Positions 1 through 39,970 of a stretch of DNA of 39,970 nucleotides are shown one piece after another. Below the pieces are notes generated by a model. It saw only the letters and a list, made by a program, of their open reading frames with translations. It did no database searches and was not told where the DNA came from. This DNA is from a virus. The stretch's first letter is position 1. Every line of letters begins with the position of its first letter. Location: UHGV virus genome UHGV-0404708; one strand, written 5' to 3'. The position numbers and the translations under genes were made by a program.

Positions 1-148
1 AGAATATCTGAACACCACCGGGCTGGGTAATCACCCTGATCTGGTCAAAACGTTCGTGAAAATCGGAAAGGCGATGTCTGAAGATGGCATGGTCACCGGT
101 GGTAATGAAGGCCAGCGTAGTGCGGCCGAAGTGCTCTATGGCAAATAA
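1..148 (+). CDS. scaffolding protein, 3' portion (ORF enters from window start)
   Basis: Open frame from nt 2 to TAA 146-148 with no start in window; sits immediately 5' of the capsid gene; in frame with the ORF that runs off the window end (2 nt + 1 nt = codon AAA). Confidence 0.6.
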   Translation, partial: EYLNTTGLGNHPDLVKTFVKIGKAMSEDGMVTGGNEGQRSAAEVLYGK

Positions 149-162
149 GAGAGGAAATGACA

Positions 163-1149
163 ATGGCTGTTAAAGGCTTAACTGCGCTAACGCTGGCTGA
201 CTGGGGTAAGCGCGTCGATCCAAACGGGAAAGTCGATAAGATTATCGAGCTTCTCAGTCAAACCAACCCAATCCTTCAGGATATGCCTTTTGTTGAAGGA
301 AACCTTCCTACCGGACACCGAACCACCATTCGTTCTGGTTTGCCTTCCGCTACTTGGCGTTTGCTGAACTATGGCGTACAACCGAGCAAATCAACAACGG
401 TGCAGGTCACTGATTCCATTGGCATGCTGGAAACCTATGCTGAAGTCGATAAGTCTCTGGCTGATCTGAACGGTAATACTGCCGAATTCCGCCTGTCTGA
501 AGACCGAGCATTTATTGAAGCGATGAATCAGGCGATGGCGCAGACGCTGTTTTACGGTGATTCCAGCGTTAACCCTCAGCAGTTTATGGGACTGTCCTCC
601 CGCTATTCCAGCCTGTCTGCGGGTAATGCTCAGAACATCATTGATGCTGGTGGCACGGGTACAGATAACACTTCAATCTGGTTAGTGGTGTGGGGCGAAA
701 ACACCGTGCATGGCATCTTCCCGAAAGGGCAGAAGGCTGGCATCCAGATGGAAGATAAAGGCCAGGTGACACTGGAAGATGCTAATGGCGGCAAGTACGA
801 AGGCTACCGTACCCATTACAAATGGGACAACGGACTTGCTCTGCGTGACTGGCGTTATGTTGTTCGCATTGCAAACATCGATGTCAGCAATCTTTCAGAA
901 CCTTCCTCTGCCGCAAATATTGCGAAGTTGATGGTTAAAGCACTGCATCGCATTCCAAATCGTGGCATGGGTCGCCCGGTGTTCTACATGAACCGCACTG
1001 TAGGCCAGGCTCTTGATCTGCAATCTCTGGAGAAAACATCTCTGGCGATCAGCGTAAAAGAGACAGAAGGCGAGTGGTGGACTTCATTCCGTGGTGTACC
1101 AATCCGTGAAACTGATGCGCTTCTGGAAACAGAAGCCCGCGTGGTGTAA
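163..1149 (+). CDS. major capsid protein
   Basis: Track ORF 157..1149; ATG 163 preferred for spacing from SD GAGAGG (149-154); size and position (after scaffold, before tail genes) typical of podovirus major capsid; family call from memory only. Confidence 0.75.
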   Translation: MAVKGLTALTLADWGKRVDPNGKVDKIIELLSQTNPILQDMPFVEGNLPTGHRTTIRSGLPSATWRLLNYGVQPSKSTTVQVTDSIGMLETYAEVDKSLADLNGNTAEFRLSEDRAFIEAMNQAMAQTLFYGDSSVNPQQFMGLSSRYSSLSAGNAQNIIDAGGTGTDNTSIWLVVWGENTVHGIFPKGQKAGIQMEDKGQVTLEDANGGKYEGYRTHYKWDNGLALRDWRYVVRIANIDVSNLSEPSSAANIAKLMVKALHRIPNRGMGRPVFYMNRTVGQALDLQSLEKTSLAISVKETEGEWWTSFRGVPIRETDALLETEARVV

Positions 1150-1200
1150 CGCCTGTTATTAACCTGTGGGTCGTAACAGACCCACTAATGGAGAAAGAAG

Positions 1201-1638
1201 ATGATCACCGACAAACTGTTGATGTTCTCCGAAGCTCAGGCGGTTACGAATACCGCGGCTTCTACTGACGTAATCGATCTCGGTCCAATTGATGGAAACC
1301 GTCGCGATATCGGCGTGGGTTATCCGCTTGAGTTTTGGGTGCTGGTTAACGAAGCCGCCACGGCAAGTGGTGAGGCAACTGTAAACATCCAGTTGCAGAC
1401 GAGTGAGAATAACAGCTCATGGTCCACTATTTATGATAGTGGCGCACTGGCAAAGGCCACCCTGACAGCAGGTAAGCGAGTTGTTTCTGCAAAGGTGCCA
1501 GCCGGTGTTCAGCGATATCTGCGTGTTAACTACTCCGTCGCAACTGGCCCACTAACGGCTGGAAAATTCACTGCGGGTATCAGTCTGGATGTTGATGCCA
1601 ATACGCCGTACCCGATCCGCTCAAAAGTAACTGGTTAA
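1201..1638 (+). CDS. hypothetical virion protein (possible capsid decoration)
   Basis: 145-aa ORF with SD-like GGAGAAAG before ATG; Thr/Ala/Gly/Val-rich; directly after capsid gene. Confidence 0.6.
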   Translation: MITDKLLMFSEAQAVTNTAASTDVIDLGPIDGNRRDIGVGYPLEFWVLVNEAATASGEATVNIQLQTSENNSSWSTIYDSGALAKATLTAGKRVVSAKVPAGVQRYLRVNYSVATGPLTAGKFTAGISLDVDANTPYPIRSKVTG

Positions 1639-1648
1639 GGTGATATCG

Positions 1649-1984: not shown

Positions 1985-2001
1985 GCCTCGCGAATCAGAC
2001 A

Positions 2002-2022: not shown

Positions 2023-2034
2023 GCAGGAGTGTAT

Positions 2035-2358
2035 ATGGAACTCGTAAACCTCAAAACCGGCACTGACAGCTACCAGGATGAGAGCGGAGAAACCAGAACT
2101 CGCGATGAATACCCGTGGGGGCTGTGCATCACTCTTAATAACGACACATTGAATAAGCTGAAGGCGCAACCTCAGGGCGTCGGAACAGAAGTGATGATAA
2201 CTGCAAAGGCTGTTATTCGAGGCCTGTCTGCCAGAGAAACTGACGATGGTGTTAATCGCAGCGCCGATCTGCAGATCACTGATATGGCGATCGCTCCTGT
2301 TTCCGGGGATGTAGAAAAATCAGCGGCTGAAACTCTGTACGGCAATGGGGGGGAGTAA
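2035..2358 (+). CDS. hypothetical structural protein
   Basis: Track ORF 2029..2358 (GTG); ATG 2035 preceded by AGGAG; stop overlaps next start (TAATG). Confidence 0.55.
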   Translation: MELVNLKTGTDSYQDESGETRTRDEYPWGLCITLNNDTLNKLKAQPQGVGTEVMITAKAVIRGLSARETDDGVNRSADLQITDMAIAPVSGDVEKSAAETLYGNGGE

Positions 2359-2963
2359 TGGCCTCTGTAGTAGAGATCTGCAATCGTGCGCTGTCCAATA
2401 TTGGCAACAGCCGCAGCATTAACAGCCTGACGGAAGCCAGCAAGGAAGCGGGGGAATGTTCGCTGCACTTTGAGGCCTGCCGTGATGCTGTTCTTTCTGA
2501 TTTTGACTGGAACTTTGCTACCAAACGCGTGGCGCTTGCAGATACGAGCAATCCACCGCCTGACTGGGAATATGCGTACCAGTACCCGTCCGATTGTCTG
2601 CGCATTACTGAAATTATGCTTCCTGGCGTACGCAATCCAACAGCAGCAATGCGCGTTCAGTACGAAGTTGGTGCAGACACCAACGGAACAGGAAAATTGA
2701 TCTACACAGACCAGCCTCAGGCATGGCTCAAGTATGTCTCTCGCGTTACAGATGTAAACATGTTTGATGCCATTTTTATGGAGGCGCTGGCCTGGCGTCT
2801 TGCGGCAGCCATTAACATGGCGCTGACTGGAAATGCGGATCTCGGTACATTTGCTCTCAATATGTACAATCGCGTGATTCTTAGTGCTGGCTCGCATAGC
2901 CAGAATGAATCACAGGAACCACAGCCACCGGTTGACGAGTTTACCATTGCGAGGTTGTCCTGA
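2358..2963 (+). CDS. tail tubular protein A-like (gatekeeper/adaptor)
   Basis: 201 aa; N-terminal pattern resembles T7 gp11-type proteins; immediately upstream of the 823-aa tube B-like gene. Confidence 0.6.
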   Translation: MASVVEICNRALSNIGNSRSINSLTEASKEAGECSLHFEACRDAVLSDFDWNFATKRVALADTSNPPPDWEYAYQYPSDCLRITEIMLPGVRNPTAAMRVQYEVGADTNGTGKLIYTDQPQAWLKYVSRVTDVNMFDAIFMEALAWRLAAAINMALTGNADLGTFALNMYNRVILSAGSHSQNESQEPQPPVDEFTIARLS

Positions 2964-5434
2964 TGGCTATCAGTTGGATCCAGCCCAGCTTTGCCGGTGG
3001 TGAGATTGGACCGTCGTTGTACGGTCGTATCGACATGGCGAAGTACCAGGTGGCATTGCGCAAGTGCGATAACTTTATCGTGCGGCAGTATGGGGGTGTT
3101 GAGAATCGACCAGGTACGCGTTTTGTCGGTGCCGCCAAATACCCAAATCGGAAATGCCGCCTGATCCCGTTCCAGTTCTCGACGGTTCAGACTTATGCTC
3201 TGGAGTTCGGACACCAGTACATGCGCGTTATCAAAGATGGTGCGTTGGTGCTGAACAGCAGCAATGTTATTTATGAAATTGCCACGCCATATACTGAAGC
3301 CGATCTGTTCCGAATTAAATTCACGCAAAGCGCAGACGTGCTTACGCTTGTTCATCCGGCATACCCGCCGAAAGAGTTGCGTCGCTATGCGCATGACAAC
3401 TGGCAACTGGTTGATGTGGTAACGAAGAACGGACCATTTGAAGATATCAATATTGACGAGTCAGTGACGGTTTATGCCAGCGCCAGCACCGGGACAATTA
3501 CGTTAACGGCAAGCGCCTCTATTTTTGGCGCGGAGCAGGTAGGCAAATTGTTCTATCTGGAACAGCCTGCTGTGGATTCTGTGCCGGTATGGGAAACCAG
3601 TAAGAGTACGTCGATTGGCGATATTCGCCGTGCAGACAGTAACTACTATCGCGCCGTTACAGCAGGCAAAACAGGCACTTTGCGCCCTTCGCATACAGAA
3701 GGCACATCATGGGATGGCTGGGGCGGCTCCGGTGATGATGATACTGGCATTGAGTGGGAGTATCTGCACAGTGGTTTTGGCATTGCCCGTATAACTGCTG
3801 TAAATGGCACCTCAGCAACTGCCGAGGTGATTTCCTATATCCCTTCGCAGGTAGTTGGCGAGGATAATGCCAGCTATAAATGGGCTAAATATGCCTGGAA
3901 CAGTATTAACGGTTATCCTGGCACTGTTGTTTATTATCAACAACGTCTTTACTTCGCCGCATCGACTGCGTTCCCTCAGACTATCTGGGCCAGCCGTACT
4001 GGGGATTATAAGGATTTTGGCAAAAGCAATCCTACGCAGGATGACGACAGAATTATCTACACCTATGCCGGGCGTCAGGTTAATGAGATCCGCCACCTGA
4101 TTGATGTTGGTTCGCTGGTAGCGCTGACTTCCGGAGGTGAGTACGTCATCACCGGCGACCAGAACAAAGTATTAACCCCATCATCATTTGCATTCAGCTC
4201 TCAGGGATCAAATGGCTCGAGCAATGTCCCACCAATTGCCGTGGCGAATATTGCTCTGTTCGTCCAGGAGAAAGGCAGTGTTGTCCGTGATCTGGCCTAC
4301 TCATTCGATGTTGACGGCTATCAGGGGAACGACCTGACCATCCTTGCCAATCATCTTTTTCAGAAGCACAGCATTGTTGACTGGTGCTTCTCTATTGTCC
4401 CTTACTCCAGCGCCTTCTGCATTCGTGATGACGGTAAATTACTGGTGATGACCTATTTGCGTGATCAGCAGGTTTTTGCATGGGCACCACAATCCAGTAC
4501 CGGAAAATATGAAAGCACATGCAGTATCAGCGAAGGCAATGAAGATGCGGTGTATTTCGTCGTTAACCGAACCGTTAACGGGCAAACAGTGAGATACATC
4601 GAGCGGCTGTCCAGCCGTTTATTTACCAGCGATGAAGATGCTTTCTTTGTTGATTCTGGCCTTAGCTATGATGGAAGAAATACGTCTGACAGAACGATGA
4701 CCATCACTGGTGGTTCTGGTGAATGGGATTACCGTGCGGAATATACAATCAGTGTTTCTGGTGGTGCGTACTTCACCAGTAGTGATGTCGGTGCGCAACT
4801 ACAGTTCCCTTATACCGGAACTGATCCTGATACTGGCGATGAAGTGTCAAAAGAATTACGTTGCGACATTATTTCTGTAACCAGCAATACCGCTGTAGTG
4901 GTTCGTCCTAACAGGAACGTCCCGCCATCCCTCAGGAATGTGGCCACCACGAACTGGCAGATGGCGCGCCGGACATTTGGCGGCTTGTCTCATCTTGAAG
5001 GTCAGACCGTAAACATCCTCTCTGATGCGAACGTGGAACCACAGAAAGTAGTTTCCGGAGGTGCCGTCACGCTGGAATCTCCGGGGGCTGTAGTGCACAT
5101 CGGCCTGCCAATAACTGCTGAATTCGAAACACTGGATATCAACATTAACGGACAGGAAACGCTGCTGGACAAAAAACAGGTGATCCCGTCAGTTACTCTG
5201 GTTGTGAATGCCAGTCGCGGCATCTGGGCGACTACGCCCGGCGGTAAATGGTACGAATATCCACAGCGTGAATTCGAGTTCTACGATGATCCTGTTGATG
5301 ATGCTACCGGAAAAGTAGAAGTGAAGCTGGACAGTAACTGGGGCAAAAACGGACGTGTAAAAATCCGTCAGCTTGACCCGTTGCCGCTGTCTGTTCTTGC
5401 CGTTATTCCTCGCCTTACTGTTGGGGGATTCTGA
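2963..5434 (+). CDS. tail tubular protein B-like (nozzle)
   Basis: 823 aa; size, position and N-terminus (MA-IS...GGE) consistent with T7 gp12-type proteins; not searched. Confidence 0.55.
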   Translation: MAISWIQPSFAGGEIGPSLYGRIDMAKYQVALRKCDNFIVRQYGGVENRPGTRFVGAAKYPNRKCRLIPFQFSTVQTYALEFGHQYMRVIKDGALVLNSSNVIYEIATPYTEADLFRIKFTQSADVLTLVHPAYPPKELRRYAHDNWQLVDVVTKNGPFEDINIDESVTVYASASTGTITLTASASIFGAEQVGKLFYLEQPAVDSVPVWETSKSTSIGDIRRADSNYYRAVTAGKTGTLRPSHTEGTSWDGWGGSGDDDTGIEWEYLHSGFGIARITAVNGTSATAEVISYIPSQVVGEDNASYKWAKYAWNSINGYPGTVVYYQQRLYFAASTAFPQTIWASRTGDYKDFGKSNPTQDDDRIIYTYAGRQVNEIRHLIDVGSLVALTSGGEYVITGDQNKVLTPSSFAFSSQGSNGSSNVPPIAVANIALFVQEKGSVVRDLAYSFDVDGYQGNDLTILANHLFQKHSIVDWCFSIVPYSSAFCIRDDGKLLVMTYLRDQQVFAWAPQSSTGKYESTCSISEGNEDAVYFVVNRTVNGQTVRYIERLSSRLFTSDEDAFFVDSGLSYDGRNTSDRTMTITGGSGEWDYRAEYTISVSGGAYFTSSDVGAQLQFPYTGTDPDTGDEVSKELRCDIISVTSNTAVVVRPNRNVPPSLRNVATTNWQMARRTFGGLSHLEGQTVNILSDANVEPQKVVSGGAVTLESPGAVVHIGLPITAEFETLDININGQETLLDKKQVIPSVTLVVNASRGIWATTPGGKWYEYPQREFEFYDDPVDDATGKVEVKLDSNWGKNGRVKIRQLDPLPLSVLAVIPRLTVGGF

Positions 5435-5898
5435 TGATCTATGTTCAAATTATTCCCGCAACCGAAGAGCATCTTCAGATGATTTTGCCGGATGTTCGTC
5501 AGGCTGATATTGACGAACTGTATGCGGTATCACTGATGACTACCGAAGATGCGCTGCGTGTTGGTCTGCGTACTGCGACTATGGCCTGGTCAGGATTTGC
5601 GAACGGAGAACTGGTAACCATGTTTGGCGTATCTCCGGCGTCAATGATCGGTGGCAATGGTACGCCATGGCTGGTCGGAACCAGCCGTATTGAAAAATAT
5701 CAGAAGACATTTCTTCGCCACTGCCGACCTGTATTGCAGCAGATGCTGGCAGTTTATCCGCGCCTGGAAAACTACGTCGACGAGCGAAACCATGTTGCCA
5801 AAGCATGGCTGCACTGGCTTGGATTCAGGCTTGAAGAAGCCGCGCCTTATGGTGCTCTTGGTCTTAATTTCCACAGATTTCACATGGAGAGAAAATAA
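5434..5898 (+). CDS. hypothetical virion/assembly protein
   Basis: 154-aa ORF; TGATG overlap with upstream stop. Confidence 0.6.
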   Translation: MIYVQIIPATEEHLQMILPDVRQADIDELYAVSLMTTEDALRVGLRTATMAWSGFANGELVTMFGVSPASMIGGNGTPWLVGTSRIEKYQKTFLRHCRPVLQQMLAVYPRLENYVDERNHVAKAWLHWLGFRLEEAAPYGALGLNFHRFHMERK

Positions 5899-6443
5899 TG
5901 TGCGATCCGGTTATTGCTGGTGGCGCAATGCTCGCCATGAGTGGCATTCAGGCATACACCCAGTACCAACAGGGAAAGTATGCCTCGAAGGTTGCAGAAG
6001 CGAACGCAGATATAGCCACAGCTCAGGCAAATGATGCAATAAACAGAGGTAACGCTGAAGCTGAGCAACGGCGCAGAGAGACCCGACAGCGGCTTGGTAC
6101 ACAGGCGGCGACAATGGGGGCTACCGGCGCTGATTTATCTACAGGTAACGCGCTGGATATATTTGGCGACACTGCCCAGTTTGGCGCTCTTGATTCGCTG
6201 ACGACGGTGAATAACGCGCAACGCGAGGCTTACGGTTATCAGGTTCAGGCTGCTAACTATAAAGCAGAAGCCAGTTCAGCCCGTAAACAGGGGAATGTGG
6301 GAGCAGCAACAACATTGCTCACTGCTCCTCTGAAGGCATACGGTGCGTACCAGATGTTTGGTGGGACGTGGAGTCCGTTTACTCAAAGCACTCCTGCGCC
6401 AATCGGGGCAGCAGCAGGAACCAGATTACCCGGAGGATTATAA
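5898..6443 (+). CDS. internal virion protein (gp14-like position)
   Basis: 181 aa, Ala/Gly/Gln-rich; TAATG overlap with upstream gene. Confidence 0.55.
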   Translation: MCDPVIAGGAMLAMSGIQAYTQYQQGKYASKVAEANADIATAQANDAINRGNAEAEQRRRETRQRLGTQAATMGATGADLSTGNALDIFGDTAQFGALDSLTTVNNAQREAYGYQVQAANYKAEASSARKQGNVGAATTLLTAPLKAYGAYQMFGGTWSPFTQSTPAPIGAAAGTRLPGGL

Positions 6444-8956
6444 TGCCAGTCGTACCAACAGTATCCGGACGCCAGGTTGAGAGCCGTGGAGTTCAGTCAG
6501 CAGGCTTGCAGACGTTTTCTCAGCCAGGTATTGGTGATGCTTTTGTTCGGGCAGGGACAGAGGCAATTGATGTTTTGGGGCAGGCAAAACAGCGTGCCAA
6601 TATCGCTCTGGCTCAGGAGGCATCTCTTAACCTCAGTCAGATAAGCAGTGATCTGCTGAATAACCCTGAAACAGGTTTGCTTAACCTGAAAGGGAAAAAT
6701 GCTATTGGAAAAGGTCAGGAGTATACGCAGCAGTTTGATGCTCAGGTCGAACAACTGGCTATGTCGCTGCCGGATGAACAGGCTCGTAATGCTTTCATGC
6801 AGCAGGCGCAGCAGCAGCGCATTCAGTTCACTACGCAGGCCGGGCGGCACGAGATAGGGCAAATAAATGCCTACGAAGAAGGCCAGTTTCAGGCGACACT
6901 GCTGAACAATGGTAAAAATGCCGCAGCATTGTATGGCGACAACGCCGCATATGTATTGGCTAATAAGCAAACTTTCCAGCAAATTGAGGATTACGGCATT
7001 GCACATGGCTGGAGTGACGAGCAAATCCAGGCCAAGAAAATCGAGTTTAAAGAAGCAACAGCAAAAGCAACTGCTCAAAATGCTATTGGAGCAAACTATC
7101 TTCAGGTAAGACAGCAAAACGGCGAGTTAAGCGATACTGCTGCTGGATCTCGCCGTGCTGTAGCAGATAGTGGATCTTCCGATCGTACCCGCGGTATACG
7201 CAACAATAACCCCGGAAATCTTGAATACAGCAAAACTAATCCGTGGGTTGGGCAGACTGGTGATGATGGTCGCTTTGCCAAATTCGAAACCCCTGAACAC
7301 GGTATTCGTGCATTAGGGCGGAACCTGATGTCGTATCAGCGGCAGGGTATTGATACCGTCAGTGAGATAATTAATCGCTGGGCACCGCCCACTGATAAAA
7401 ATGACACAATGTCGTATATCAAAGCAGTGTGCGAACAACTTGGCGTTTCTGCTGATGAGCCTCTCGATGCATCTAATCCGGATACCCTGAAGGCGCTTTG
7501 TGCAGCCATTATCCATCATGAAAACGGTAGCCAGCCATACAGTGATCAGCAGTTAACTGCTGGTGTTAGTGCCGCGCTGGGGCTTTCTCAGCTACCGACA
7601 AAAAATAAACGTTATACCGGTGTAGCCTGGTTCGATGCTTTAAGTGAATCAGATCAGGCCAGCGTGTTGCGACAGACTGATGCACTAGCCAGACAACAGC
7701 AGGCTGAATATAAAACGATGCTCGACAGCCGGGTTCGCGATGCGACGGCTGCGTATATGCGTGGCGTTGAATTTCCTAACCCACCTGGTGAGGATGATTT
7801 TATTGCAGCTTATGGAGTCAGAGAAGGAAACCTGCGATATACCGAGTTTAAGAATACGCAGATCGCCGGACAGTATATAGGCTCTTTCCGCAACATGCCG
7901 ACAAGCAGCATTACAGCATATGTTGAGCAATTACGCCCGGATACTGGTGATACAGGGGATGGGTATGCGGCACGCGCAGCTCTTTATGACAACGTTGTTT
8001 CGGCTGCAAATCAGGTGATAAAGCAGCGGCAGTCGGATCCTGTGCAGTTCTCTCTTGCCTCCGGACAGGCAAAGCCTATCGACATGAGCAATAAGGATAA
8101 CTTTGGACAGAGCGTTGCCTTGCGTGCCGCTCAGGTCAGTGACCTTGCTAAGTCATATGGCACTCCACTGACGTTCTTTTCCAAAGACGAGGCCAATCAG
8201 ATCGGTGTTTTCTTTCGTGATGCTCCAGTTTCCCAACAGGCAGCATATCTCGACACCATCAGGCAGAGCACTGGTGGTGGGCAGGTGTATATGTCAGCAC
8301 TACAGCAGATCAGTGCCAACGCTCCATCTGCTGCCGTTGCCGGGATACTGATGGATAAGCCTGGTGGTATTTTGGCAGAAAAAAACTGGTTTAATCCGGA
8401 TGTTTCCGTGTCTCCTGAAACCGCTGCGCAGACAATTCTTGCTGGCGCGGCGGCTCGTAAAGGTGCTGATGATGCGAAAGGTATTCCGATGCCTAAAGAT
8501 GCTGATCTTCGCCTTGAGTTTTCTGACATGGTGAAGGATGCATTTGCTGGTGACGCTCATGGGGCATCAATGGCATACGAGATCGCAAAGGATTATTACG
8601 CTGGTGTGATGGCGAAAAAAGGCGTGGTATCAGGAGAAATTGACAATGATGTCTGGAAACAGGCTGTTAACGTAGCTACAGGTGGCGTGCATGACTATAA
8701 CGGAATGGGGAATGTCCTTTTGCCGTGGGGAATGTCTGCAGAGCAATTCGATAAGCAGGTTAATCAGGCTTGGAATGAACAAGTTGTCGGCTCCGGGATA
8801 AAAACACCGCCTGGTCAGTATGGTTTGCAAAGTTACGGCGATAGTCAGTACCTGGTGAAACTTGGTACTGGTTATCTGCTGAAAGATGATGGTTCTCCCG
8901 TTGTTCTTAATCTGACACAGAAGCGTCAGAGATTCTCCGGAGATATTCCGCAATGA
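6443..8956 (+). CDS. internal virion/core protein with possible cell-wall hydrolase domain
   Basis: Track ORF 6368..8956; ATG 6443 overlaps upstream stop (TAATG); central block with NNPGNL...WAPP motifs (about nt 7180-7560). Confidence 0.55.
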   Translation: MPVVPTVSGRQVESRGVQSAGLQTFSQPGIGDAFVRAGTEAIDVLGQAKQRANIALAQEASLNLSQISSDLLNNPETGLLNLKGKNAIGKGQEYTQQFDAQVEQLAMSLPDEQARNAFMQQAQQQRIQFTTQAGRHEIGQINAYEEGQFQATLLNNGKNAAALYGDNAAYVLANKQTFQQIEDYGIAHGWSDEQIQAKKIEFKEATAKATAQNAIGANYLQVRQQNGELSDTAAGSRRAVADSGSSDRTRGIRNNNPGNLEYSKTNPWVGQTGDDGRFAKFETPEHGIRALGRNLMSYQRQGIDTVSEIINRWAPPTDKNDTMSYIKAVCEQLGVSADEPLDASNPDTLKALCAAIIHHENGSQPYSDQQLTAGVSAALGLSQLPTKNKRYTGVAWFDALSESDQASVLRQTDALARQQQAEYKTMLDSRVRDATAAYMRGVEFPNPPGEDDFIAAYGVREGNLRYTEFKNTQIAGQYIGSFRNMPTSSITAYVEQLRPDTGDTGDGYAARAALYDNVVSAANQVIKQRQSDPVQFSLASGQAKPIDMSNKDNFGQSVALRAAQVSDLAKSYGTPLTFFSKDEANQIGVFFRDAPVSQQAAYLDTIRQSTGGGQVYMSALQQISANAPSAAVAGILMDKPGGILAEKNWFNPDVSVSPETAAQTILAGAAARKGADDAKGIPMPKDADLRLEFSDMVKDAFAGDAHGASMAYEIAKDYYAGVMAKKGVVSGEIDNDVWKQAVNVATGGVHDYNGMGNVLLPWGMSAEQFDKQVNQAWNEQVVGSGIKTPPGQYGLQSYGDSQYLVKLGTGYLLKDDGSPVVLNLTQKRQRFSGDIPQ

Positions 8957-10755
8957 GTTACTTTGGCCTTAATCCAGTAAACCAGAATCAGCAGCTTGAC
9001 GAAGCAGCATCAAATCCAGCTGGCTTTAACAGCGATGTTGGTTTTTTCGACAATGCTGTAGGAGCGGCATTGTCTGGTTTGTACTCCGGGCTGGTGGCAA
9101 AGCCAGATCAGTTGCTATGGGCAGGAATGGATAAAATCGTATCCCCGATTGCTCAGTTTGTTAACGAAAACACCTCGCTCAATGACACTTCAGTTTCATA
9201 CATTGCTGAGCAGAGAAAACTAGCAGAGCAGCAGGTTAAGCGGCTGACGCCTGATGCCGCGACAACCGGAACCGCCGGGCAGGTCCTTTATGGGTTGTTC
9301 GATATGGGCGGGCAGGCTGTTGTCGGTACAACGCTCGGTGGTCCGGTCGGAGGTGCTGCGGCGGTAACTTCTCTACAGGGTTTTTCTGAGTTTGAACGGC
9401 TGACAGCACAGGGTGTTGATTTCAGGACGGCGCAGGAAGCAGGATTAGTGCAGGGTATTACTGCTGGTGCCGGAACACTGATCCCAATGAGCCTCGGGTT
9501 ACGTGCTGGCGGTGCGCTGGCGGAAGGTGTGGCGGCTCAGCTTGCGCGGACGGGTGAAAGTTCAGTGCGACGCGCCGCAGCAACAGCAGTACGTGCAACG
9601 CCAGATATTGCCTATGCCGCAGGTACAAATATTGCGTTCGGTATGGCACAGCGTGGGCTTACTGCAAAAACGCTTCGTGATGGTGGCTATAGCGAAATGG
9701 CTAACCAGTATGATGTGTTGGATCGACAGGCAATTGCTATTGATGCTGTTCTTGGGGTGGCGTTTGGTGGTGTCGGCAGATTTATTAACTCTCGCAGCGA
9801 GTCTACAAGCGCACCAAATTTTTCACCAGTTGATATCGATGCTGCACTGGCGGCGAATGCCTCTCATCATGCTGAAATTGATATTGCTCCCGGCGTTCCG
9901 ATCAACGTGCTTTCGCGTAATTCGCACATTCAGGCTCTGCGAAAAGCCATGTCTGATGTTAGCCAGGGGAGACCTGTAGACGTTGCCAGCATTGTTGAGT
10001 CTGCATCTTTCAGTGAAATTCCTGGGCGCAAGAGTCTGCTGTCTCAGGCAGTTAATGAGGCTCTGTCATCTGTAGATGATGGAGTAACGGCGCGCGCTAT
10101 AGAAAATCGGTTGCTTGAAGAACAGGCCGCGCAGCTTTTGCCGCGTGGAGATAGACAGGTTTACCAGTCTGAAATCGCTAATAGCCAACGAATTATTGAA
10201 AATTTCACTGAACAGCGTGCACAAATTCTTGCAGAAGAGCCAACCGGTAGCGGTAAAGCTTTGTCTCGTGCTCGATCAGATAAACAGGCCAGACTTCGCG
10301 ATATTGATCAACGAATCCGGCAGGCACAAGAACGCCTGGAATTTTCCCGTAACGCGTTGGCACCGCACGAGCCTGGCGGTCAGTTTTTTGAAGCTCGAGC
10401 AGAACTGGCTCGGAGACAGCAGGCAGAAAGTGAACTTAATGCTCAGGCTGTTTCATTCTATAAAACAGCAGAGGTCAGGACGCCAGACGAAGTAGCTCCT
10501 TTTGAGCCTGATAAAATATTGCAACAGGCAGAACAAAAAATGATGTCAGATCAGGCAGGAGATATTGATCTGCGCATAGCTGAAGACTCGCTGCTTGAAT
10601 CACCTGACATGATAATCACCGTGCTGGATGATGATGGTAATCCACAATCGCGCAGTGCGCGTGAAGTACTGGATGAAGCGAACAGGGAAAGTGAGCAGGC
10701 AATACAGGATTCCAGCCTGTTTGATGTCGCTGTGGCGTGTTTCTTGAGAGGTTAA
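8953..10755 (+). CDS. internal virion/core protein
   Basis: 600 aa; Gly/Ala-rich N-terminal half, coiled-coil-like C-terminal half; ATGA overlap with upstream stop. Confidence 0.55.
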   Translation: MSYFGLNPVNQNQQLDEAASNPAGFNSDVGFFDNAVGAALSGLYSGLVAKPDQLLWAGMDKIVSPIAQFVNENTSLNDTSVSYIAEQRKLAEQQVKRLTPDAATTGTAGQVLYGLFDMGGQAVVGTTLGGPVGGAAAVTSLQGFSEFERLTAQGVDFRTAQEAGLVQGITAGAGTLIPMSLGLRAGGALAEGVAAQLARTGESSVRRAAATAVRATPDIAYAAGTNIAFGMAQRGLTAKTLRDGGYSEMANQYDVLDRQAIAIDAVLGVAFGGVGRFINSRSESTSAPNFSPVDIDAALAANASHHAEIDIAPGVPINVLSRNSHIQALRKAMSDVSQGRPVDVASIVESASFSEIPGRKSLLSQAVNEALSSVDDGVTARAIENRLLEEQAAQLLPRGDRQVYQSEIANSQRIIENFTEQRAQILAEEPTGSGKALSRARSDKQARLRDIDQRIRQAQERLEFSRNALAPHEPGGQFFEARAELARRQQAESELNAQAVSFYKTAEVRTPDEVAPFEPDKILQQAEQKMMSDQAGDIDLRIAEDSLLESPDMIITVLDDDGNPQSRSAREVLDEANRESEQAIQDSSLFDVAVACFLRG

Positions 10756-10760
10756 ATTAA

Positions 10761-13235
10761 ATGAGACAGGAATGTATACAAGCGGTCCAGCAGGCGGCGC
10801 AGCGCACGTTAACGGCGCGAGAAATACAGAACATTGAAGACCGCATTTATCGAAATATGCGCTCCATTGCTCGTGATGACCCGATGTCGTGGCGACAACT
10901 TTCCGAATCAGAGCGGCTATATCGTGCAGCACAATTGGCATCTGAAGAATTACAGCGAGAAGCGGCATTAAAGAAACGTCGTGTGGCCCTCACTATAGCC
11001 GCACGTCAGAGATTGGATAAATTTATCAATAGCTATCAAGGGTCTGATGGGAAACTTGGCGCTCTTAACCGTACTATTGCTTTTAATGCAGACGGTAAAT
11101 CGAATTTCCTCTCTGTTGAGTCCAGAACAAAAGCCACTCGTGATTATGCATTGAGTCAATTGCAAGAGGCATTTGAAGCAGTTGATCCTCGCTTTTTTGG
11201 CCTGTTTGAAGATGAAGCGGGCGTACGTGACCTGGTATATGAAATGCGGGGGCAAAATACTGGCAATGCTAAAGCAAGAAAAGGTGCTAAGGCGTGGAGA
11301 GAAGTTACAGAGCTGCTGCGCCGCCGGTTTAATGATGCTGGTGGGGACATTGGCTATCTCGAAAACTGGGGGATCCCTCAACATCATTCTATGGAAAAGG
11401 TTGGTGCGGTATCAAAAGATAAATGGGTTAGCGATGTTATAGGTAAGCTGGATCGCAAATATTATACCCGAGCCGATGGACAACTGATGAACGATGACGA
11501 GTTGTCTGCATTTCTTGGAGAGGCTTATAACACGATCGCTACAGGTGGGCTGAATAAGCTTACTGATACCGGAATGCGAATTTCCGGCGCACGTGCTAAC
11601 CGTGGTAATGCATCACGACAGATACATTTCAAAGATGCAGATTCCTATCTGCAATATCAGCAACTTTATGGCGATCGCTCTCTATGGGAAATCATGGTCG
11701 GTCACCTGGAAGGTATCAGTAAAGATATTGCACTGGTGGAAACATATGGCCCAAACCCCGATCATGTTTTCCGCTCTCTTCTTGATCAGGTGAAGGCAGA
11801 AACGGCAACAGCTAACCCGAGTAAAACCGGTAAAGTCGAGCGGCTGGCGAACAACACAGAGAATCTGTACAACTTTATTTCCGGAAAGACACAGCCTGTA
11901 GCAAATCCGCACATCGCGCGATGGTCTGACAATATCCGCAACTGGCTGGTTGCCAGCAGACTCGGATCCGCGTTGCTGTCATCGTTCTCTGATCTTGGAA
12001 CCATGTATCTGTCTGCGAAGGTGACCAACCTTCCAATGAACCAGTTATTCCGCAACCAGCTTGAAGCTATGGACCCAACGAACCGTACTGAGCTTGCGCG
12101 GGCGCGCCGCGCTGGTCTGGCGATGGGATCTCTACTTGGCAGCGTTAACCGCTGGGCGATGGATAATATGGGGCCGTCAGTGTCTCGTTGGGCGGCAACG
12201 GCGGTAATGCGTGCCAGTGGGCTTACAGCATGGTCAGATGCGCACAAGCGCGCCTATGGCGTAACCATGATGGGAAGCATGGGAGAAGTAGTGTCACGGA
12301 CACCAGACCTTCGTAGCCTCGATGACTCTGATTTTCGTATCCTGAAAAGCAAAGGGATTACTGACACAGACTGGAGCGTATGGAAGCTGGCGCAACAGGA
12401 GGACTGGGGGAACGGTAATAATACGATGCTGACACCGGAAAGCATTATGCGTATCCCTGATTCAGTAGTTAAACATCTTGGTGAGCCTGAACGCGTGAAA
12501 TTTGAGGCAATGCGTAAACTGCTCGGTGCCGTAACTGAAGAAGTTGATATGGCTGTTATTACACCGGGAGCACGTGAGCAACTGATAACCGGTTCTGGTA
12601 TTCAGCGTGGAACATGGAAAGGTGAATTAACGAGAAGTGTTTTCCTGTTTAAATCGTTCCCTATCTCGGTTGTTATGCGTCACTGGTCACGCGCTATGGG
12701 TATGCCGTCTGCTGGTGGGCGTGCGGCATATATTGCGACGTTTATTGCCAGTACGACCATTCTTGGCGCTTTGTCGCAGCAACTTAACGACCTTGCGTCT
12801 GGTCGTAATCCTCGAGAGATGACAGGAGAAGATGCCGCAAAATTCTGGCTTGGTGCTCTACTGAAAGGTGGTGGTCTTGGTCTTTACGGTGACTTTTTAT
12901 TGTCAGATCACACTAGGTACGGAAGCGGCGCGCTGGCGTCGATGCTTGGCCCGGTAGCTGGTCTGGTTGATGACGTGGTGAAGATTGCTCAGGGCATACC
13001 GTTAAATGCTGTGGAAGGGAAGAGTGAGCAGACTGGTGGTGATCTGGTGAAGCTGGGGAAAGGTTTGATGCCTGGTGCGAATCTCTGGTATTTGAAGGCG
13101 GCTCTCGATCACATGATCTTTAACCAGATGCAGGAGTATTTTTCACCAGGCTATTTGCGTAAAATGGAGCAACGTTCGAAGAAAGAGTTTAACCAGACAT
13201 ACTGGTGGCGACCTCAGGATGTCACTCCGCAATAA
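10761..13235 (+). CDS. large internal virion/core protein (gp16-like position)
   Basis: 824 aa; SD GAGAGG upstream; last gene of the co-oriented virion block. Confidence 0.55.
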   Translation: MRQECIQAVQQAAQRTLTAREIQNIEDRIYRNMRSIARDDPMSWRQLSESERLYRAAQLASEELQREAALKKRRVALTIAARQRLDKFINSYQGSDGKLGALNRTIAFNADGKSNFLSVESRTKATRDYALSQLQEAFEAVDPRFFGLFEDEAGVRDLVYEMRGQNTGNAKARKGAKAWREVTELLRRRFNDAGGDIGYLENWGIPQHHSMEKVGAVSKDKWVSDVIGKLDRKYYTRADGQLMNDDELSAFLGEAYNTIATGGLNKLTDTGMRISGARANRGNASRQIHFKDADSYLQYQQLYGDRSLWEIMVGHLEGISKDIALVETYGPNPDHVFRSLLDQVKAETATANPSKTGKVERLANNTENLYNFISGKTQPVANPHIARWSDNIRNWLVASRLGSALLSSFSDLGTMYLSAKVTNLPMNQLFRNQLEAMDPTNRTELARARRAGLAMGSLLGSVNRWAMDNMGPSVSRWAATAVMRASGLTAWSDAHKRAYGVTMMGSMGEVVSRTPDLRSLDDSDFRILKSKGITDTDWSVWKLAQQEDWGNGNNTMLTPESIMRIPDSVVKHLGEPERVKFEAMRKLLGAVTEEVDMAVITPGAREQLITGSGIQRGTWKGELTRSVFLFKSFPISVVMRHWSRAMGMPSAGGRAAYIATFIASTTILGALSQQLNDLASGRNPREMTGEDAAKFWLGALLKGGGLGLYGDFLLSDHTRYGSGALASMLGPVAGLVDDVVKIAQGIPLNAVEGKSEQTGGDLVKLGKGLMPGANLWYLKAALDHMIFNQMQEYFSPGYLRKMEQRSKKEFNQTYWWRPQDVTPQ

Positions 13236-18836: not shown

Positions 18837-18899
18837 TTTATTGTGTATGATGAACTCATCAATAAGTGGGTTCTTCATGCACATTAAACGGTGGTTTTT

Positions 18900-19304
18900 A
18901 TGTCAGTTCAGCTAACCAGTGAGTCTTTAAATCAGTGGCTTAGTGCGAGTTCTCTTGTTGCGGTGATAGCAGGGGTTCCTCCAGAGGTGGCTTTGGGAGC
19001 TTTGGCTGGGGCGGTAATTTTTGTTACCTCAGCCATCGAGTATCCCATTCATCGCCGGGTTCTCCTGTCTATGCTCAGCTTCCTCTGCGGCCTTCTCTTT
19101 TACAAACCTACAGCATCCATCCTTATCGGTGTAGCCAGCCTGATCCCTACCATCACGCATGACTCTTTCGAGAAAGGGATCGTCTTCTCTGCTGGCGCAT
19201 TTGTGTCGTCAATTGTCGCCGTGCGAATTGGTATATGGCTTTATCACCGTTCCGATAATCCACGAGAGTTAATTCCGGGGAGAAAAGACGATGGTAACGC
19301 ATGA
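18900..19304 (+). CDS. holin-like multi-pass membrane protein
   Basis: Track ORF 18891..19304 (GTG); ATG 18900 preferred; 3-4 hydrophobic helices; first gene of lysis cassette. Confidence 0.5.
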   Translation: MSVQLTSESLNQWLSASSLVAVIAGVPPEVALGALAGAVIFVTSAIEYPIHRRVLLSMLSFLCGLLFYKPTASILIGVASLIPTITHDSFEKGIVFSAGAFVSSIVAVRIGIWLYHRSDNPRELIPGRKDDGNA

Positions 19305-33883: not shown

Positions 33884-33924
33884 GAGTAGATTATGCATGA
33901 TGAATTTGATGGGTTTTGAATACT

Positions 33925-33950
33925 GCCGCCAACTATGGCGGCTTTATTTT
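33925..33950 (+). terminator. rho-independent terminator before terminase operon
   Basis: GCCGCC-AACTAT-GGCGGC followed by TTTATTTT. Confidence 0.7.
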
Positions 33951-33961
33951 GCATGGTACTA

Positions 33962-33976
33962 TTACCACAACGGTAA
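33962..33976. promoter_or_regulatory. operator-like palindrome upstream of terminase genes
   Basis: TTACCACAACGGTAA exact; a weaker copy TTACCACGGTGGTTA follows at 33980-33994. Confidence 0.5.
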
Positions 33977-33993
33977 CTATTACCACGGTGGTT

Positions 33994-34590
33994 ATGATGC
34001 CTGCTGAACCTAAAACCTATAAACGCAAATCAACGCAATTTAAGCCACTAACAGCAATGCAGGAGGCTTATTGCCAGTCATACATCAAAACGCCTGAAAA
34101 CCAGACTCAGGCAGCGATTAACGCAGGATTTTCCCCAAATACAGCGGCAGTTAAAGCCAGTGTCATGATGCGCGATGAACGCATTCAAAAACGGATTGCC
34201 GAGTTGATGGAGGAGCGCAACAAACGAATACGCGTCAGTGCTGATTACGTTCTCATGCGGCTGGTGGAGATCGACCAGATGGACGTGATTGATATCCTCA
34301 ACGACGATGGGAGCCTTAAGCCAATCCGCGAGTGGCCGAAAATCTGGCGCACTACGCTTAGCGGCTTTGATCTGTCATCGACCATCATGAACATGAACGA
34401 GGATTCGATAGAGACAATCCTCAAAAAAATTAAATGGCCTGACAAGGTGAAGAACCTCGAACTGATTGGTAAGCACGTCGACGTCAACGCATTCAAAGAA
34501 CGCCTAGATGTTAATGTGAATGTGACAATTGCTGATCGCATAGCAGCAGCCAGGAAGCGACTCAAAGAACGTCAGGATGGTAATCAGTGA
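33994..34590 (+). CDS. terS: terminase small subunit
   Basis: Track ORF 33916..34590; ATG 33994/33997; small-terminase-like composition; stop overlaps terL start. Confidence 0.7.
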   Translation: MMPAEPKTYKRKSTQFKPLTAMQEAYCQSYIKTPENQTQAAINAGFSPNTAAVKASVMMRDERIQKRIAELMEERNKRIRVSADYVLMRLVEIDQMDVIDILNDDGSLKPIREWPKIWRTTLSGFDLSSTIMNMNEDSIETILKKIKWPDKVKNLELIGKHVDVNAFKERLDVNVNVTIADRIAAARKRLKERQDGNQ

Positions 34591-36062
34591 CAGATACAGT
34601 GTTATCTCCTGAAGAGCAGTTGATCGAGGATATTGCAGGGTTTACTCACGATCCGCTTGGTTATGCCATCTATGCGTTCCCGTGGGGGGAAGAGGGGACT
34701 GAACTGGCACATGCTACTGGCCCACGTCAGTGGCAGGCTGATGCGTTCCGAGAGATACGTGATCACCTGCAGAATCCAGAGACGCGCTATCAGCCGCTTA
34801 TGCTGGCACGCGCTTCTGGTCACGGTATTGGTAAATCCGCATTCATTTCAATGCTGATCAACTGGGGCATGTCCACTTGCGAGGATTGTAAGGTCGTGGT
34901 GACCGCCAACACCGACAACCAGCTACGAACGAAGACCTGGCCGGAAATTATCAAGTGGTCGAACCTTGCTATCACGAAAGACTGGTTTACCTGTACCGCT
35001 ACCGCGATGTACAGCAATGACCCTGGGCACGACAAGCGGTGGCGAGCTGACGCAATCCCCTGGTCTGAGCACAACACTGAGGCATTCGCCGGACTACACA
35101 ACGAGCGCAAACGCATCATCGTGGTATTCGATGAAGCGTCGAACATTGCGGATCTGGTGTGGGAAGTTGCTGAGGGGGCGCTTACGGACGAAGACACTGA
35201 GATTATCTGGGTGGCGTTCGGAAACCCTACACGTAACACCGGACGTTTCCGCGAATGTTTCCGCAAATATAAACACCGCTGGAAAACTGCGCAGATTGAC
35301 AGCCGAACGGTGGAAGGCACTAACAAACAGCAGTTGCAGAAATGGGTTGATGACTACGGGGAAGACAGCGACTTCGTTAAAATCCGTGTGCGCGGCATAT
35401 TCCCTGATGCATCTGAATTGCAGTTTATCCCTACCGGTCTTACTGATGAGGCAATGAAACGGGTGGTAACCGCTGCGCAGGTGGCGCATGCTCCGGTGAT
35501 AATCGGCGTTGACCCGGCATACTCCGGCGTTGATGACGCTGTGATATACCTGCGGCAGGGGCTGCACAGTAAGGTGCTATGGACTGGCAACAAGACCACT
35601 GACGATCTGATTATGGCGAAGCGTATCGCTGACTTTGAAGACCAGTACCAGGCTGACGCGGTGTTCATCGACTTCGGTTACGGAACCGGTCTGAAGTCAA
35701 TCGGTGACGGATGGGGTCGTACATGGCAACTTGTTCCGTTCGGTGGCGCGTCTACTGACCCGCAGATGCTCAACAAGCGTGGGGAGATGTTCAATTCATG
35801 CAAGACATGGCTGAGGCTGGGCGGCATGCTGGATGACCAGGAAACAGCAGACGACCTGTCGGCGGCAGAGTACAAAGTTCGAGTGGATGGTAAAATCGTT
35901 ATCGAACCGAAGGAAGATATCAAGGAGCGGCTTGGGCGTTCGCCGGGTAAAGGCGATGCGCTACTGCTGACGTTTGCGTTCCCTGTGTCTAAGCGTCTGC
36001 GAATTCCCGGGCAGCAGAACCAGCAAGGCAAGGCCATCACAGATTACGATCCCTATGCTTAA
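34587..36062 (+). CDS. terL: terminase large subunit
   Basis: 491 aa, GTG start overlapping terS stop; Walker A-like GHGIGKS; nuclease-type C-terminal half. Confidence 0.9.
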   Translation: MTDTVLSPEEQLIEDIAGFTHDPLGYAIYAFPWGEEGTELAHATGPRQWQADAFREIRDHLQNPETRYQPLMLARASGHGIGKSAFISMLINWGMSTCEDCKVVVTANTDNQLRTKTWPEIIKWSNLAITKDWFTCTATAMYSNDPGHDKRWRADAIPWSEHNTEAFAGLHNERKRIIVVFDEASNIADLVWEVAEGALTDEDTEIIWVAFGNPTRNTGRFRECFRKYKHRWKTAQIDSRTVEGTNKQQLQKWVDDYGEDSDFVKIRVRGIFPDASELQFIPTGLTDEAMKRVVTAAQVAHAPVIIGVDPAYSGVDDAVIYLRQGLHSKVLWTGNKTTDDLIMAKRIADFEDQYQADAVFIDFGYGTGLKSIGDGWGRTWQLVPFGGASTDPQMLNKRGEMFNSCKTWLRLGGMLDDQETADDLSAAEYKVRVDGKIVIEPKEDIKERLGRSPGKGDALLLTFAFPVSKRLRIPGQQNQQGKAITDYDPYA

Positions 36063-37433: not shown

Positions 37434-37447
37434 CCGGAGTCATTGAA

Positions 37448-39127
37448 ATGGCGGAAACAACTAAAGAGCGATTGAACAAACAGTTCGCACAACTTGAAAG
37501 CGAGCGTCAGTCGTTCGAGCCGCACTGGCGCGAGTTGAGTGATTACATCAACCCGCGTGGTTCCCGCTTTCTGACTTCTGAGGTCAACCGTAACGATCGA
37601 CGCAATACACGCATTATTGATTCGACCGGGACTATGGCGGCGCGCACTCTCGCCAGCGGCATGATGTCAGGCATCACAAGCCCCGCGCGTCCGTGGTTTC
37701 GCCTGGCTACGCCAGATCCTGAAATGATGGATTATGGCCCTGTTAAGTTGTGGCTTGAGGCGGTGCAGAACCGCATGAACGATATGTTCAATAAGTCGAA
37801 TCTCTACCAGTCGCTGCCGCAGTTATACGGAAGCCTCGGCACATACAGCACTGGTGCAATGGCGGTGCTGGAGGATGACGAGGACATCATTCGCACAATG
37901 CCATTCCCGATAGGCAGTTACTACCTGGCTAACTCACCTCGTGGCAGTGTTGACACCTGTTTTCGCAAGTTCTCTATGACTGTTCGTCAGCTTGTTCAGG
38001 AGTTCGGGCTAAATAACGTCAGCGAATACGTAAAAAGCATGTGGGAAAGCGGCACCTACGAGAAGTGGATCGAAGTGATGCATTCGGTTTACCCGAACAT
38101 TGACCGCGATACATCGAAGCTGGATAGCAAGAACAAGCCATTCAAATCGGTTTATTACGAGGTTGGCGGCGATAACGACAAGTTGTTGCGTGAGTCCGGA
38201 TTCGATGAGTTTCCAATTATGGCTCCGCGCTGGGAAGTTAACGGCGAGGATGTTTATGGATCATCATGCCCGGGTATGCTGGCGCTTGGACCTGTTAAGG
38301 CATTGCAGCTTCTCCAGAAGCGCAAGTCGCAGTTGATTGATAAAGCCACCAATCCGCCGATGGTTGCTCCGACTTCCCTCAAGAATCAGCGCGCCTCCCT
38401 TCTTCCTGGCGACATCACGTATATCGATCAGATTACTGGTCAGGATGGTTTCAGGCCTGCTTATCTGGTTAACCCCAGTACAGCAGATCTGGTAGCAGAC
38501 ATTCAGGACACCCGCCAAATCATTAACAGCGCCTACTTTGTCGATCTGTTCATGATGTTGCAGAACATCAATACCCGCTCGATGCCTGTTGAAGCAGTGA
38601 TCGAAATGAAAGAAGAAAAACTTCTGATGTTGGGGCCGGTTCTGGAGCGTCTGAACGACGAATGTCTTAATCCTCTCATTGACCGCGCTTTCTCGATGAT
38701 GGTGCGTAAAAACATGTTGCCGCCACCGCCTGACGCGATGGAAGGTATGCCACTGAAGGTCGAATACATTTCCGTCATGGCTCAGGCGCAGAAGTCTATC
38801 GGCTTGTCCAGTTTGGCGTCCACGGTCAACTTCATTGGTCAACTTGCGCAAGCGAAACCAGAAGCTCTCGACAAACTCAATGTTGATCAGGCGATTGATG
38901 CATTCGCTGATATGTCCGGAGTGTCTCCAACCGTCATTGTTCCGCAGGAACAGGTTGAGCAGGCACGCCAGCAACGGGCACAGCAGCAACAGCAGCAACA
39001 AATGATGGCGATGGGGATGGCGGCGGCACAGGGCGCCAAGACGCTAAGCGAAGCTAAAACTTCGGATCCGAGTGTGTTGTCAGCTATGGCGAATGCAGTT
39101 AGTGGTCAGGGTGGGCAATCACAATGA
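37448..39127 (+). CDS. portal (head-to-tail connector) protein, T7 gp8-like
   Basis: 559 aa; Gln-rich, Met/Ala-rich C-terminal tail as in T7-type connectors; followed by small ORF and scaffold. Confidence 0.8.
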   Translation: MAETTKERLNKQFAQLESERQSFEPHWRELSDYINPRGSRFLTSEVNRNDRRNTRIIDSTGTMAARTLASGMMSGITSPARPWFRLATPDPEMMDYGPVKLWLEAVQNRMNDMFNKSNLYQSLPQLYGSLGTYSTGAMAVLEDDEDIIRTMPFPIGSYYLANSPRGSVDTCFRKFSMTVRQLVQEFGLNNVSEYVKSMWESGTYEKWIEVMHSVYPNIDRDTSKLDSKNKPFKSVYYEVGGDNDKLLRESGFDEFPIMAPRWEVNGEDVYGSSCPGMLALGPVKALQLLQKRKSQLIDKATNPPMVAPTSLKNQRASLLPGDITYIDQITGQDGFRPAYLVNPSTADLVADIQDTRQIINSAYFVDLFMMLQNINTRSMPVEAVIEMKEEKLLMLGPVLERLNDECLNPLIDRAFSMMVRKNMLPPPPDAMEGMPLKVEYISVMAQAQKSIGLSSLASTVNFIGQLAQAKPEALDKLNVDQAIDAFADMSGVSPTVIVPQEQVEQARQQRAQQQQQQQMMAMGMAAAQGAKTLSEAKTSDPSVLSAMANAVSGQGGQSQ

Positions 39128-39420
39128 CAGATTACGAAGACGATCAACTGAAAGAAGAAAACGCCCGTAAGCAACGTGACATGGCACAGCGTGAAATTGA
39201 TGACATTCGCTTTGTCATGAGCAGTGAACAGGGGCGTCGCGTTGTCTGGTCGGTGCTGGAGAAAGGCCGTGTGTTTTCTGCTATCTCACCGATGGACGCT
39301 ATGGCTATGGCATTTAATGAGGGGCAACGCAATCTGGCGCTGGAACTGTTTCAGCGCGTTATGGCGCATTGCCCTGAACAGTATTTGAAGATGGCCAAAG
39401 AGGCCAGTGAACAGGAGTGA
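39124..39420 (+). CDS. hypothetical head-assembly protein
   Basis: 98-aa ORF with ATGA overlap to portal stop. Confidence 0.5.
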   Translation: MTDYEDDQLKEENARKQRDMAQREIDDIRFVMSSEQGRRVVWSVLEKGRVFSAISPMDAMAMAFNEGQRNLALELFQRVMAHCPEQYLKMAKEASEQE

Positions 39421-39422
39421 TC

Positions 39423-39970
39423 ATGAATTTATTTGAGCGTTTGCTGTATCGCCGTCTTTGCAATGAGCAACCAGTCGATGGTGGAGCAGCTCCAGCTGCG
39501 TCAGAACCGTCAGCGCCTGCAGGTGATAACCCTGCTCCAGTTGGTGATCCATCACAACAGGAAGGTGATAAGCCACAACCTGTTGCTGATGGCGATAAAC
39601 CTGCTGATGACAAAAAGCCTGAAAACGATAAGCAGGGTGAAAAAAAGGACGGCGATAAACCAGAGGGTGCGCCTGAGAAGTACGAGTTTCAGGCTGCCGA
39701 AGGCGTAGAGCTGGATACAGAAGCGTTGAAGGAATTCGAGCCGGTGGCGCGAGAACTTAACCTGACCAACGAGCAAGCGCAAAAGCTGGTTGATGCTTAT
39801 CCGAAGATTCTGGCAGGTGTTCAGCAGCGCCAGGCAGAAGCCTGGCAGAAAACAACCGAGCAGTGGGCTGCGGATGTAAAAGCTGACAAAGAAATCGGTG
39901 GCGACAAGTTGATTTCTAACCTTAGCGCCGCACAGCGTGCGCTTGACCAGTTCGGGACACCTGAACTCAA
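39423..39970 (+). CDS. scaffolding protein, 5' portion (ORF runs off window end)
   Basis: ATG 39423; 182 codons without stop to window end; acidic Asp/Glu/Lys/Pro-rich low-complexity N-terminus; in frame with 1..148. Confidence 0.6.
   Translation, partial: MNLFERLLYRRLCNEQPVDGGAAPAASEPSAPAGDNPAPVGDPSQQEGDKPQPVADGDKPADDKKPENDKQGEKKDGDKPEGAPEKYEFQAAEGVELDTEALKEFEPVARELNLTNEQAQKLVDAYPKILAGVQQRQAEAWQKTTEQWAADVKADKEIGGDKLISNLSAAQRALDQFGTPEL

Follow-up and report, generated by a model that had tools for sequence, protein, structure and literature searches.

Here we report the analysis of the virus genome UHGV-0404708, a stretch of 39,970 nucleotides that we refer to in its entirety as the window, and of the gene that its two ends divide between them. 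The gene lies between the portal and the major capsid protein genes. The features that surround the point where the end of the window meets its start are the following.

37448..39127, plus strand: portal protein gene (PF12236, E 7e-187).
39124..39420, plus strand: gene for a Bbp19-like small protein, homologous to gp5 of epsilon15 (PF25181, E 3e-17).
39423..39970, plus strand: 5' part of the split gene, 548 nt, equal to 182 codons and 2 nt; homolog of epsilon15 gp6 and phiV10p09, encoding a putative scaffolding protein.
1..148, plus strand: 3' part of the split gene, consisting of 1 nt, 48 codons and the stop codon TAA at 146-148.
163..1149, plus strand: major capsid protein gene of the epsilon15 gp7 family (PF20911 GP7, E 1e-149).

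Joined end to start, the two parts form one open reading frame (ORF) of 696 nt, which encodes 231 amino acids followed by a stop codon and whose codon 183 (AAA, Lys) takes its third nucleotide from window base 1. Its ATG at 39423 adjoins the stop codon of the preceding gene (TGA, 39418-39420), is preceded at a distance of 6 nt by a GGAG Shine-Dalgarno sequence (39414-39417), and is the same start that the NCBI Prokaryotic Genome Annotation Pipeline assigns to the counterpart of the gene in a prophage. The coordinates given in a preliminary description of the window are all correct, and it had proposed that the ends join in frame into a protein of about 231 amino acids; the length is exactly 231, and translation from 39970 into position 1 is free of stop codons. 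Read in either of the remaining frames, the join lies within an open stretch of only 11 or 22 codons. The reading frame alone is nevertheless weak evidence, because unrelated ends would be expected to join in frame and without a stop codon in about 3% of cases (1/3 x (61/64)^48), and it is homology that decides the question.

At the protein level, the joined product is identical at 231 of 231 positions, without gaps, to the product of a gene that is intact in a prophage of E. coli (WP_063090535.1), and its identity with phiV10p09 is 97%. Among 5.8 billion proteins searched, the matches listed were 222-251 amino acids long and, with a single exception (95%), covered 100% of the query. At the nucleotide level, a 2,400-nt junction, made by placing the final 1,200 nt of the window before its initial 1,200 nt, gave one ungapped full-length alignment in 14 deposited phage genomes; the identity was 95-98% for phages of E. 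coli and 83% for Enterobacter phage Tyrion. A 45-mer spanning the join had exact matches in at least 120 IMG/VR contigs. In a prophage that is 99.2-99.9% identical to the window, the counterparts of positions 39970 and 1 lie side by side (bases 24010 and 24011 of locus L002). The window ends were also compared for exact terminal repeats of 5-400 nt, and none was detected.

Comparison with phage phiV10 (NC_007804.2, 39,104 bp) by blastn extended this result to the whole genome, since nine collinear blocks run once round the complete circle after rotation. The blocks that define the rotation are listed below.

Window 1-13238: phiV10 6101-19338.
Window 33537-33875: phiV10 38766-39104.
Window 33876-39970: phiV10 1-6100, with phiV10 position 1 at window 33876.

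The first and last bases of the window (1 and 39970) are thus the neighbouring phiV10 bases 6101 and 6100. A VIRIDIC-like calculation from blastn gave an intergenomic similarity of about 76%, with 79% of the window aligned at 87-98% identity. According to the ICTV thresholds for nucleotide similarity, genomes with at least 70% similarity share a genus, and those with less than 95% similarity represent separate species. By this measure, the window phage belongs to the genus Uetakevirus, which comprises temperate podoviruses similar to epsilon15 and phiV10, and is a species other than phiV10. The signature gene order of the genus is present after rotation, namely terS-terL, then, further along, portal, gp5, gp6, gp7 (the major capsid protein), cement protein, gp10 staple, tail and ejection proteins, tailspike, lysis genes and int, and the domains PF03592, PF12236, PF25181, PF20911, PF21190, PF21628 and PF24072 were found in this order and collinear with phiV10. 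All functional modules are represented, including the small and large terminase subunits, portal, capsid, tail, lysis, integrase, recombination, repressor and replication genes; among the individual genes are a methyltransferase, Bet and exonuclease, the repressor, DnaT-like and P-like replication genes, and a nin-like region.

Megablast of the two halves of the window against 50,697 phage records, the plasmids of PLSDB and 5,426 complete E. coli genomes, together with exact 45-mers from window-specific regions against IMG/VR, yielded no record that contains the window in full. Relatives of this phage have been deposited opened at many different points. The records of phiV10 and Tyrion start at terS, those of HEMP4, phiv142-3, TL-2011b and PAS61 start at or near the attachment (att) site, ZX5 is opened at another point, and two circular Uetakevirus records of 41,027 bp are opened inside the portal gene. 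Because relatives are opened in so many places, the split gene is, judged by comparison of the records, an artefact of the linearisation of a circular map and not a biological feature.

A further line of evidence is provided by the attachment site, which lies approximately half-way along the window next to the integrase gene.

20808..20824, no strand assigned: attP core ATTGAGTGGGAATGATT, the 17-bp overlap of the attL-side and attR-side alignments, with both arms verified.
21015..22271, plus strand: tyrosine integrase gene (PF13356, PF00589, PF22022).

The core repeats the last four codons and the stop codon of the host gene guaA (IEWE*), so integration leaves guaA intact. The left att arm of the window is the phage arm of attR and the right arm is that of attL, and the matches of three further lysogens likewise end at window 20824. 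Since a core flanked on either side by phage arms constitutes attP, which is found only in an excised circle or in virion DNA, the arrangement of the arms identifies the window as the excised or virion form, without host flanks or host DNA.

The closest integrated relative is a prophage located between guaA and yfgI in E. coli isolate 30224_1#305 (NZ_OZ040331.1, 1363797-1403311), which shows the identity quoted above over all but 1.4 kb of the window. Its split-gene product and its 17-bp att core are identical to those of the window, but it is integrated, with attL and attR in place of attP, and in two segments of the window, 15039-16039 and 36156-36515, it shows allelic replacement. The former corresponds to an ORF6N-type antirepressor region that is found in other lysogens too, and the latter to a gene of the PF13876 gp49/66 family. 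Apart from these two replacements, both of which are phage genes, the window matches the prophage throughout, within the part that lies between attL and attR, which bears out the earlier statement that no bacterial genes are present.

Near-identical guaA prophages occur in many E. coli assemblies, and the window could in principle be a slice of a chromosome with an integrated prophage, having arbitrary ends with host or other DNA beyond them. An integrated copy, however, is broken at the att core in the order guaA-attL-int through to lysis-attR-yfgI, whereas in the window the lysis genes, attP and int are contiguous at 20808-20824, an arrangement that is impossible to obtain from a single integrated prophage; in addition, the window ends are neighbouring bases of one gene. 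A single integrated prophage was therefore rejected on the attP evidence, and we assign this explanation a negligible probability. A tandem dilysogen has an internal attP and would provide an identical sequence, so that the window might represent one unit of a polylysogenic array or of a replicative concatemer. Such a slice would have to comprise exactly one unit to the base, with no nucleotide repeated or missing, and the odd length of 39,970 nt suggests a whole record rather than a fixed-size cut. We regard this origin as highly improbable, and even a tandem slice would contain one complete, circularly rotated genome.

Taken together, the collinearity with phiV10, the exact join in the prophage, the presence of attP, and the relatives that are circular or opened elsewhere lead us to conclude that the window is very probably a complete and non-redundant genome of a temperate podovirus, 39,970 bp in length, with a circular map linearised at an arbitrary base, with E. 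coli as its host and the 3' end of guaA as its integration site. The view that the window is a complete genome opened inside one gene was already contained in the preliminary description and agrees with the join found in phiV10 and the prophage, the full collinearity and attP. The circular assembly may have arisen from terminally redundant and circularly permuted virion DNA, from sequencing of the excised circle, or from both.

The same description had called the genome circularly permuted. As far as rotation of the record is concerned, this holds; physical permutation of the virion DNA by headful packaging can only be deduced from homology with Tyrion, through the two terminase genes.

33916..34590, plus strand: terminase small subunit gene, terS (PF03592, E 2e-29), whose product is 87% identical to TerS of Tyrion.
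34587..36062, plus strand: terminase large subunit gene, terL (PHROG 2), whose product is 81% identical to TerL of Tyrion and distantly matches PacB of P1.

For Tyrion, terminal redundancy and circular permutation, the latter confirmed by PCR, have been reported (PMC5754475). Because TerL and TerS of the window are this similar to the proteins of an experimentally permuted phage, we infer that its virion DNA is likewise physically permuted by headful packaging, in which TerS and TerL would package from concatemers, starting near the terS gene. TerL itself had no match in Pfam, NCBIfam or the solved structures of PDB, and nothing on the DNA ends of epsilon15 or phiV10, or on the function of gp6, was found in the literature searched, which did not extend to the genome papers (Kropinski 2007, Perry 2009). 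It is also conceivable that the circular map is right and that the termini of the virion DNA are fixed, as cos ends or as short direct repeats, and were collapsed by the assembler, with no physical permutation. The window sequence holds no direct evidence of the packaging type, and many deposited relatives are labelled linear and start at terS by convention, as does the phiV10 record, 40 nt upstream of this gene at window 33876. The similarity to TerL of Tyrion and the distant match to PacB of P1, a pac-type protein, speak against fixed ends, as does the finding that no repeat was present in the test of the window ends or at or near terS, and we consider fixed ends decidedly unlikely in comparison with headful packaging.

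The product of the split gene presents a separate question, because its name in the databases differs from that suggested by its position. The preliminary description had called it scaffold-like, in the canonical order of portal, scaffold and capsid; the position and gene order stand, and the function is plausible, although unproven and in contradiction to the name of protease or peptidase used in the databases. This label would make the split-gene product a protease of prohead maturation. The protein matches the PHROG 458 family 'protease' with E 2e-111, and the names given to the family are 'protease', 'peptidase' or 'putative endoprotease' throughout, all relatives being named 'peptidase' by NCBI or 'protease' by RefSeq. 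However, nothing significant was found for the protein itself in Pfam, NCBIfam or PDB (phmmer), a profile built from 110 diverse relatives (34-66% identity) had no match in PDB, and none of the 110 relatives matched a peptidase family.

The predicted structure points in the same direction. An AlphaFold2 model based on the alignment of these 110 relatives has a mean predicted local distance difference test score (pLDDT) of 78, with values above 90 for residues 100-210. Residues 1-85 are rich in Pro, Asp and Lys and are predicted to be disordered, with block means of 53-66 and almost no secondary structure, and the region 99-212 is all-helical, with zero strands in the model. The known folds of prohead proteases are of the alpha/beta type, either similar to HK97 gp4 and the herpesvirus protease or ClpP-like. 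A fold comparison of the split-gene model returned no match, and a disordered N-terminus of 85 residues followed by an all-helical body argues against a protease. Only A119 and D155 are invariant in the family, and Y87, W148 and H194 are the only near-invariant polar residues other than Asp, Glu and Gln; the invariant and near-invariant columns contain no conserved Ser or Cys nucleophile. Neither a model of MEROPS families S78, S49/S14 (ClpP-like), U9 or U35 nor the combination of a protease fold and a nucleophile was found.

By contrast, the predicted model has the features expected of a scaffolding protein, being largely alpha-helical, with flexible regions and without an enzymatic fold. The gene also occupies the expected place, between the portal and major capsid protein genes, in a phage whose capsid protein has no delta domain. 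The capsid protein consists of 328-330 amino acids, and PF20911 spans residues 21-330, which leaves no room for such a domain; the starts annotated for phiV10 and for the prophage fall at 163, with an alternative ATG at 157, 9-15 nt after the TAA of the split gene. Because the capsid protein is without a delta domain, a separate scaffold is needed. No other scaffold candidate is present between the portal and capsid genes, so that the split gene is the sole candidate there, which also counts against its being a protease, and no peptidase domain was found elsewhere in the structural module. The protein has, on the other hand, no significant match to a curated scaffold family, and this weighs against the assignment: the query itself had no hit, and an hhalign comparison with T7 gp9 gave a probability of 0.2%. 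Six of the 110 relatives match the T7 scaffold family PF05396, in each case below threshold (best E 0.0013).

On the balance of the predicted model and the gene context, the split-gene product is probably a scaffolding protein, in the sense that it would work like a scaffold and not that it is a member of a particular family. A prohead protease, as the databases label it, is unlikely, and the small share of probability that is left falls to a protein that is neither a scaffold nor a protease.

Two of the relatives mentioned above bear on the state in which the phage persists. The Uetakevirus genomes pHL15EC-2 (NZ_CP079771.1) and NZ_CP079768.1 are filed as closed circular 'plasmids' of 41,027 bp and, as with the window artefact, are opened in a structural gene, that of the portal. 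They are about 95% identical to the window over 58% of its variable half, and unlike the window they carry another tailspike (GDSL esterase) and acyltransferase genes. The two records come from two complete assemblies of duck E. coli, their integrase is intact, and they could represent either induced phage or an episomal state. Because these related 41-kb genomes are filed as circular plasmids, a plasmid-like state is hinted at. We consider very unlikely, however, the two-part proposal that the record is a stable extrachromosomal circle in a lysogen (a plasmid-like prophage), in place of an assembly of permuted virion DNA or of a circle excised only transiently, and that, as a separate matter, the 'protease/peptidase' of PHROG 458 is a mis-annotated scaffolding protein.

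The remaining structural, tail and lysis genes follow the capsid gene on the same strand.

1201..1638, plus strand: gene for a capsid cement protein of the Bbp16 family (PF21190, E 4e-49).
2029..2358, plus strand: gene for an epsilon15 gp10-like capsid staple protein (PF21628, E 1e-51, and the annotation of the near-identical prophage).
2358..13235, plus strand: genes for tail tube and internal virion (ejection) proteins, 96.9% identical and collinear with phiV10p14-p20.
5898-6443, plus strand: gene for a T7 gp14-like core protein (PF24072).
16782..18803, plus strand: tailspike gene, with a Uetakevirus-type N-terminal adaptor of about 195 amino acids and a divergent receptor-binding part.
18891..20697, plus strand: lysis cassette, comprising a pair of holins, a GH19 endolysin and an Rz-like spanin (from Pfam and from the annotation of the prophage with 99% identity).

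Among 50,697 deposited phage records, the receptor-binding part of the tailspike (amino acids ~200-673) had no close match, the best being a tail protein of an Stx2k phage at 52.5%. At least 104 blocks from E. coli assemblies encode exactly this tailspike of 673 amino acids, and among the matches listed, 8 of 8 were located in guaA/yfgI prophages.

The gene order is that of phiV10 round the whole circle, and differences were noted in the following regions. The receptor-binding part of the phiV10 tailspike is unlike that of the window. The window also lacks an equivalent of phiV10 oac (17132-18818 compared with phiV10 21346-24729), the O-acetyltransferase gene for serotype conversion and superinfection immunity, and its holin genes stand directly 3' of the tailspike gene. 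Further differences from phiV10 concern the antirepressor (13239-16050) and nin-like (30228-33536) regions of the window, and the place beside int is occupied in phiV10 by a DUF1382 gene and in the window by a gene similar to Ser/Thr phosphatases. The latter encodes a metallophosphoesterase resembling Ser/Thr protein phosphatases (22274-23053, minus strand; PF00149; PRK11439 at 266 bits, with a cut-off of 326). Enterobacter phage Tyrion (NC_031077.1) shares the genus and architecture with the window, and the junction is contiguous in its genome; it infects another host genus, and its nucleotide identity is about 80% over some 70% of the first 25 kb of the window.

Several accessory elements were also observed. 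A C4 antisense RNA (16060-16145, 76.7 bits) and isrK (16170-16246, 68.1 bits), both on the minus strand and at the level of the Rfam gathering thresholds, are located directly 5' of a small ORF (15508-16014, minus strand) and of an antirepressor-like gene with an ORF6N domain (14796-15530, minus strand). The region 14796-16246 looks like an antirepressor operon of the P1/P7 immI type, which would be controlled by antisense RNA. The antirepressor region is a mosaic hot spot, its place being taken in relatives by Arc/P22 Ant, AntA or Bro-N alleles. A gene for tRNA-Arg (anticodon TCT, for the rare AGA codon) is situated between terL and the portal gene (36723-36799, minus strand) and is annotated in the near-identical prophage too. 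The ORF at 31907-32437 (plus strand), named 'XF1762 family protein' in the same prophage, has a sub-threshold match to Mom in Pfam (E 1e-4; 22.5 versus 27.1 bits), and its product is possibly a DNA-modification-related protein with an acyltransferase fold.

In summary, the window represents an ordinary phage of a well-studied genus, near-identical prophages of which are already present in public E. coli genomes. As a complete genome of a known genus opened at an arbitrary base, it needs no special explanation, and the opening point carries little biological weight. For annotation, the record is best treated as circular or re-opened upstream of terS at window 33876, as in the phiV10 record; if it is left as it stands, the gene homologous to gp6 will be missed or annotated in two pieces. 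A by-product of the analysis concerns the family of the split-gene product, which comprises 14,005 cluster representatives at E<=0.001. The name 'protease/peptidase', carried by thousands of entries in PHROGs, RefSeq and GenBank, is unsupported by model, motif or predicted fold, and 'Scaffolding protein (putative)' would be a better label for the family. In the role suggested here, the protein would nucleate assembly of the capsid protein that has no delta domain and would then leave the procapsid without proteolysis.

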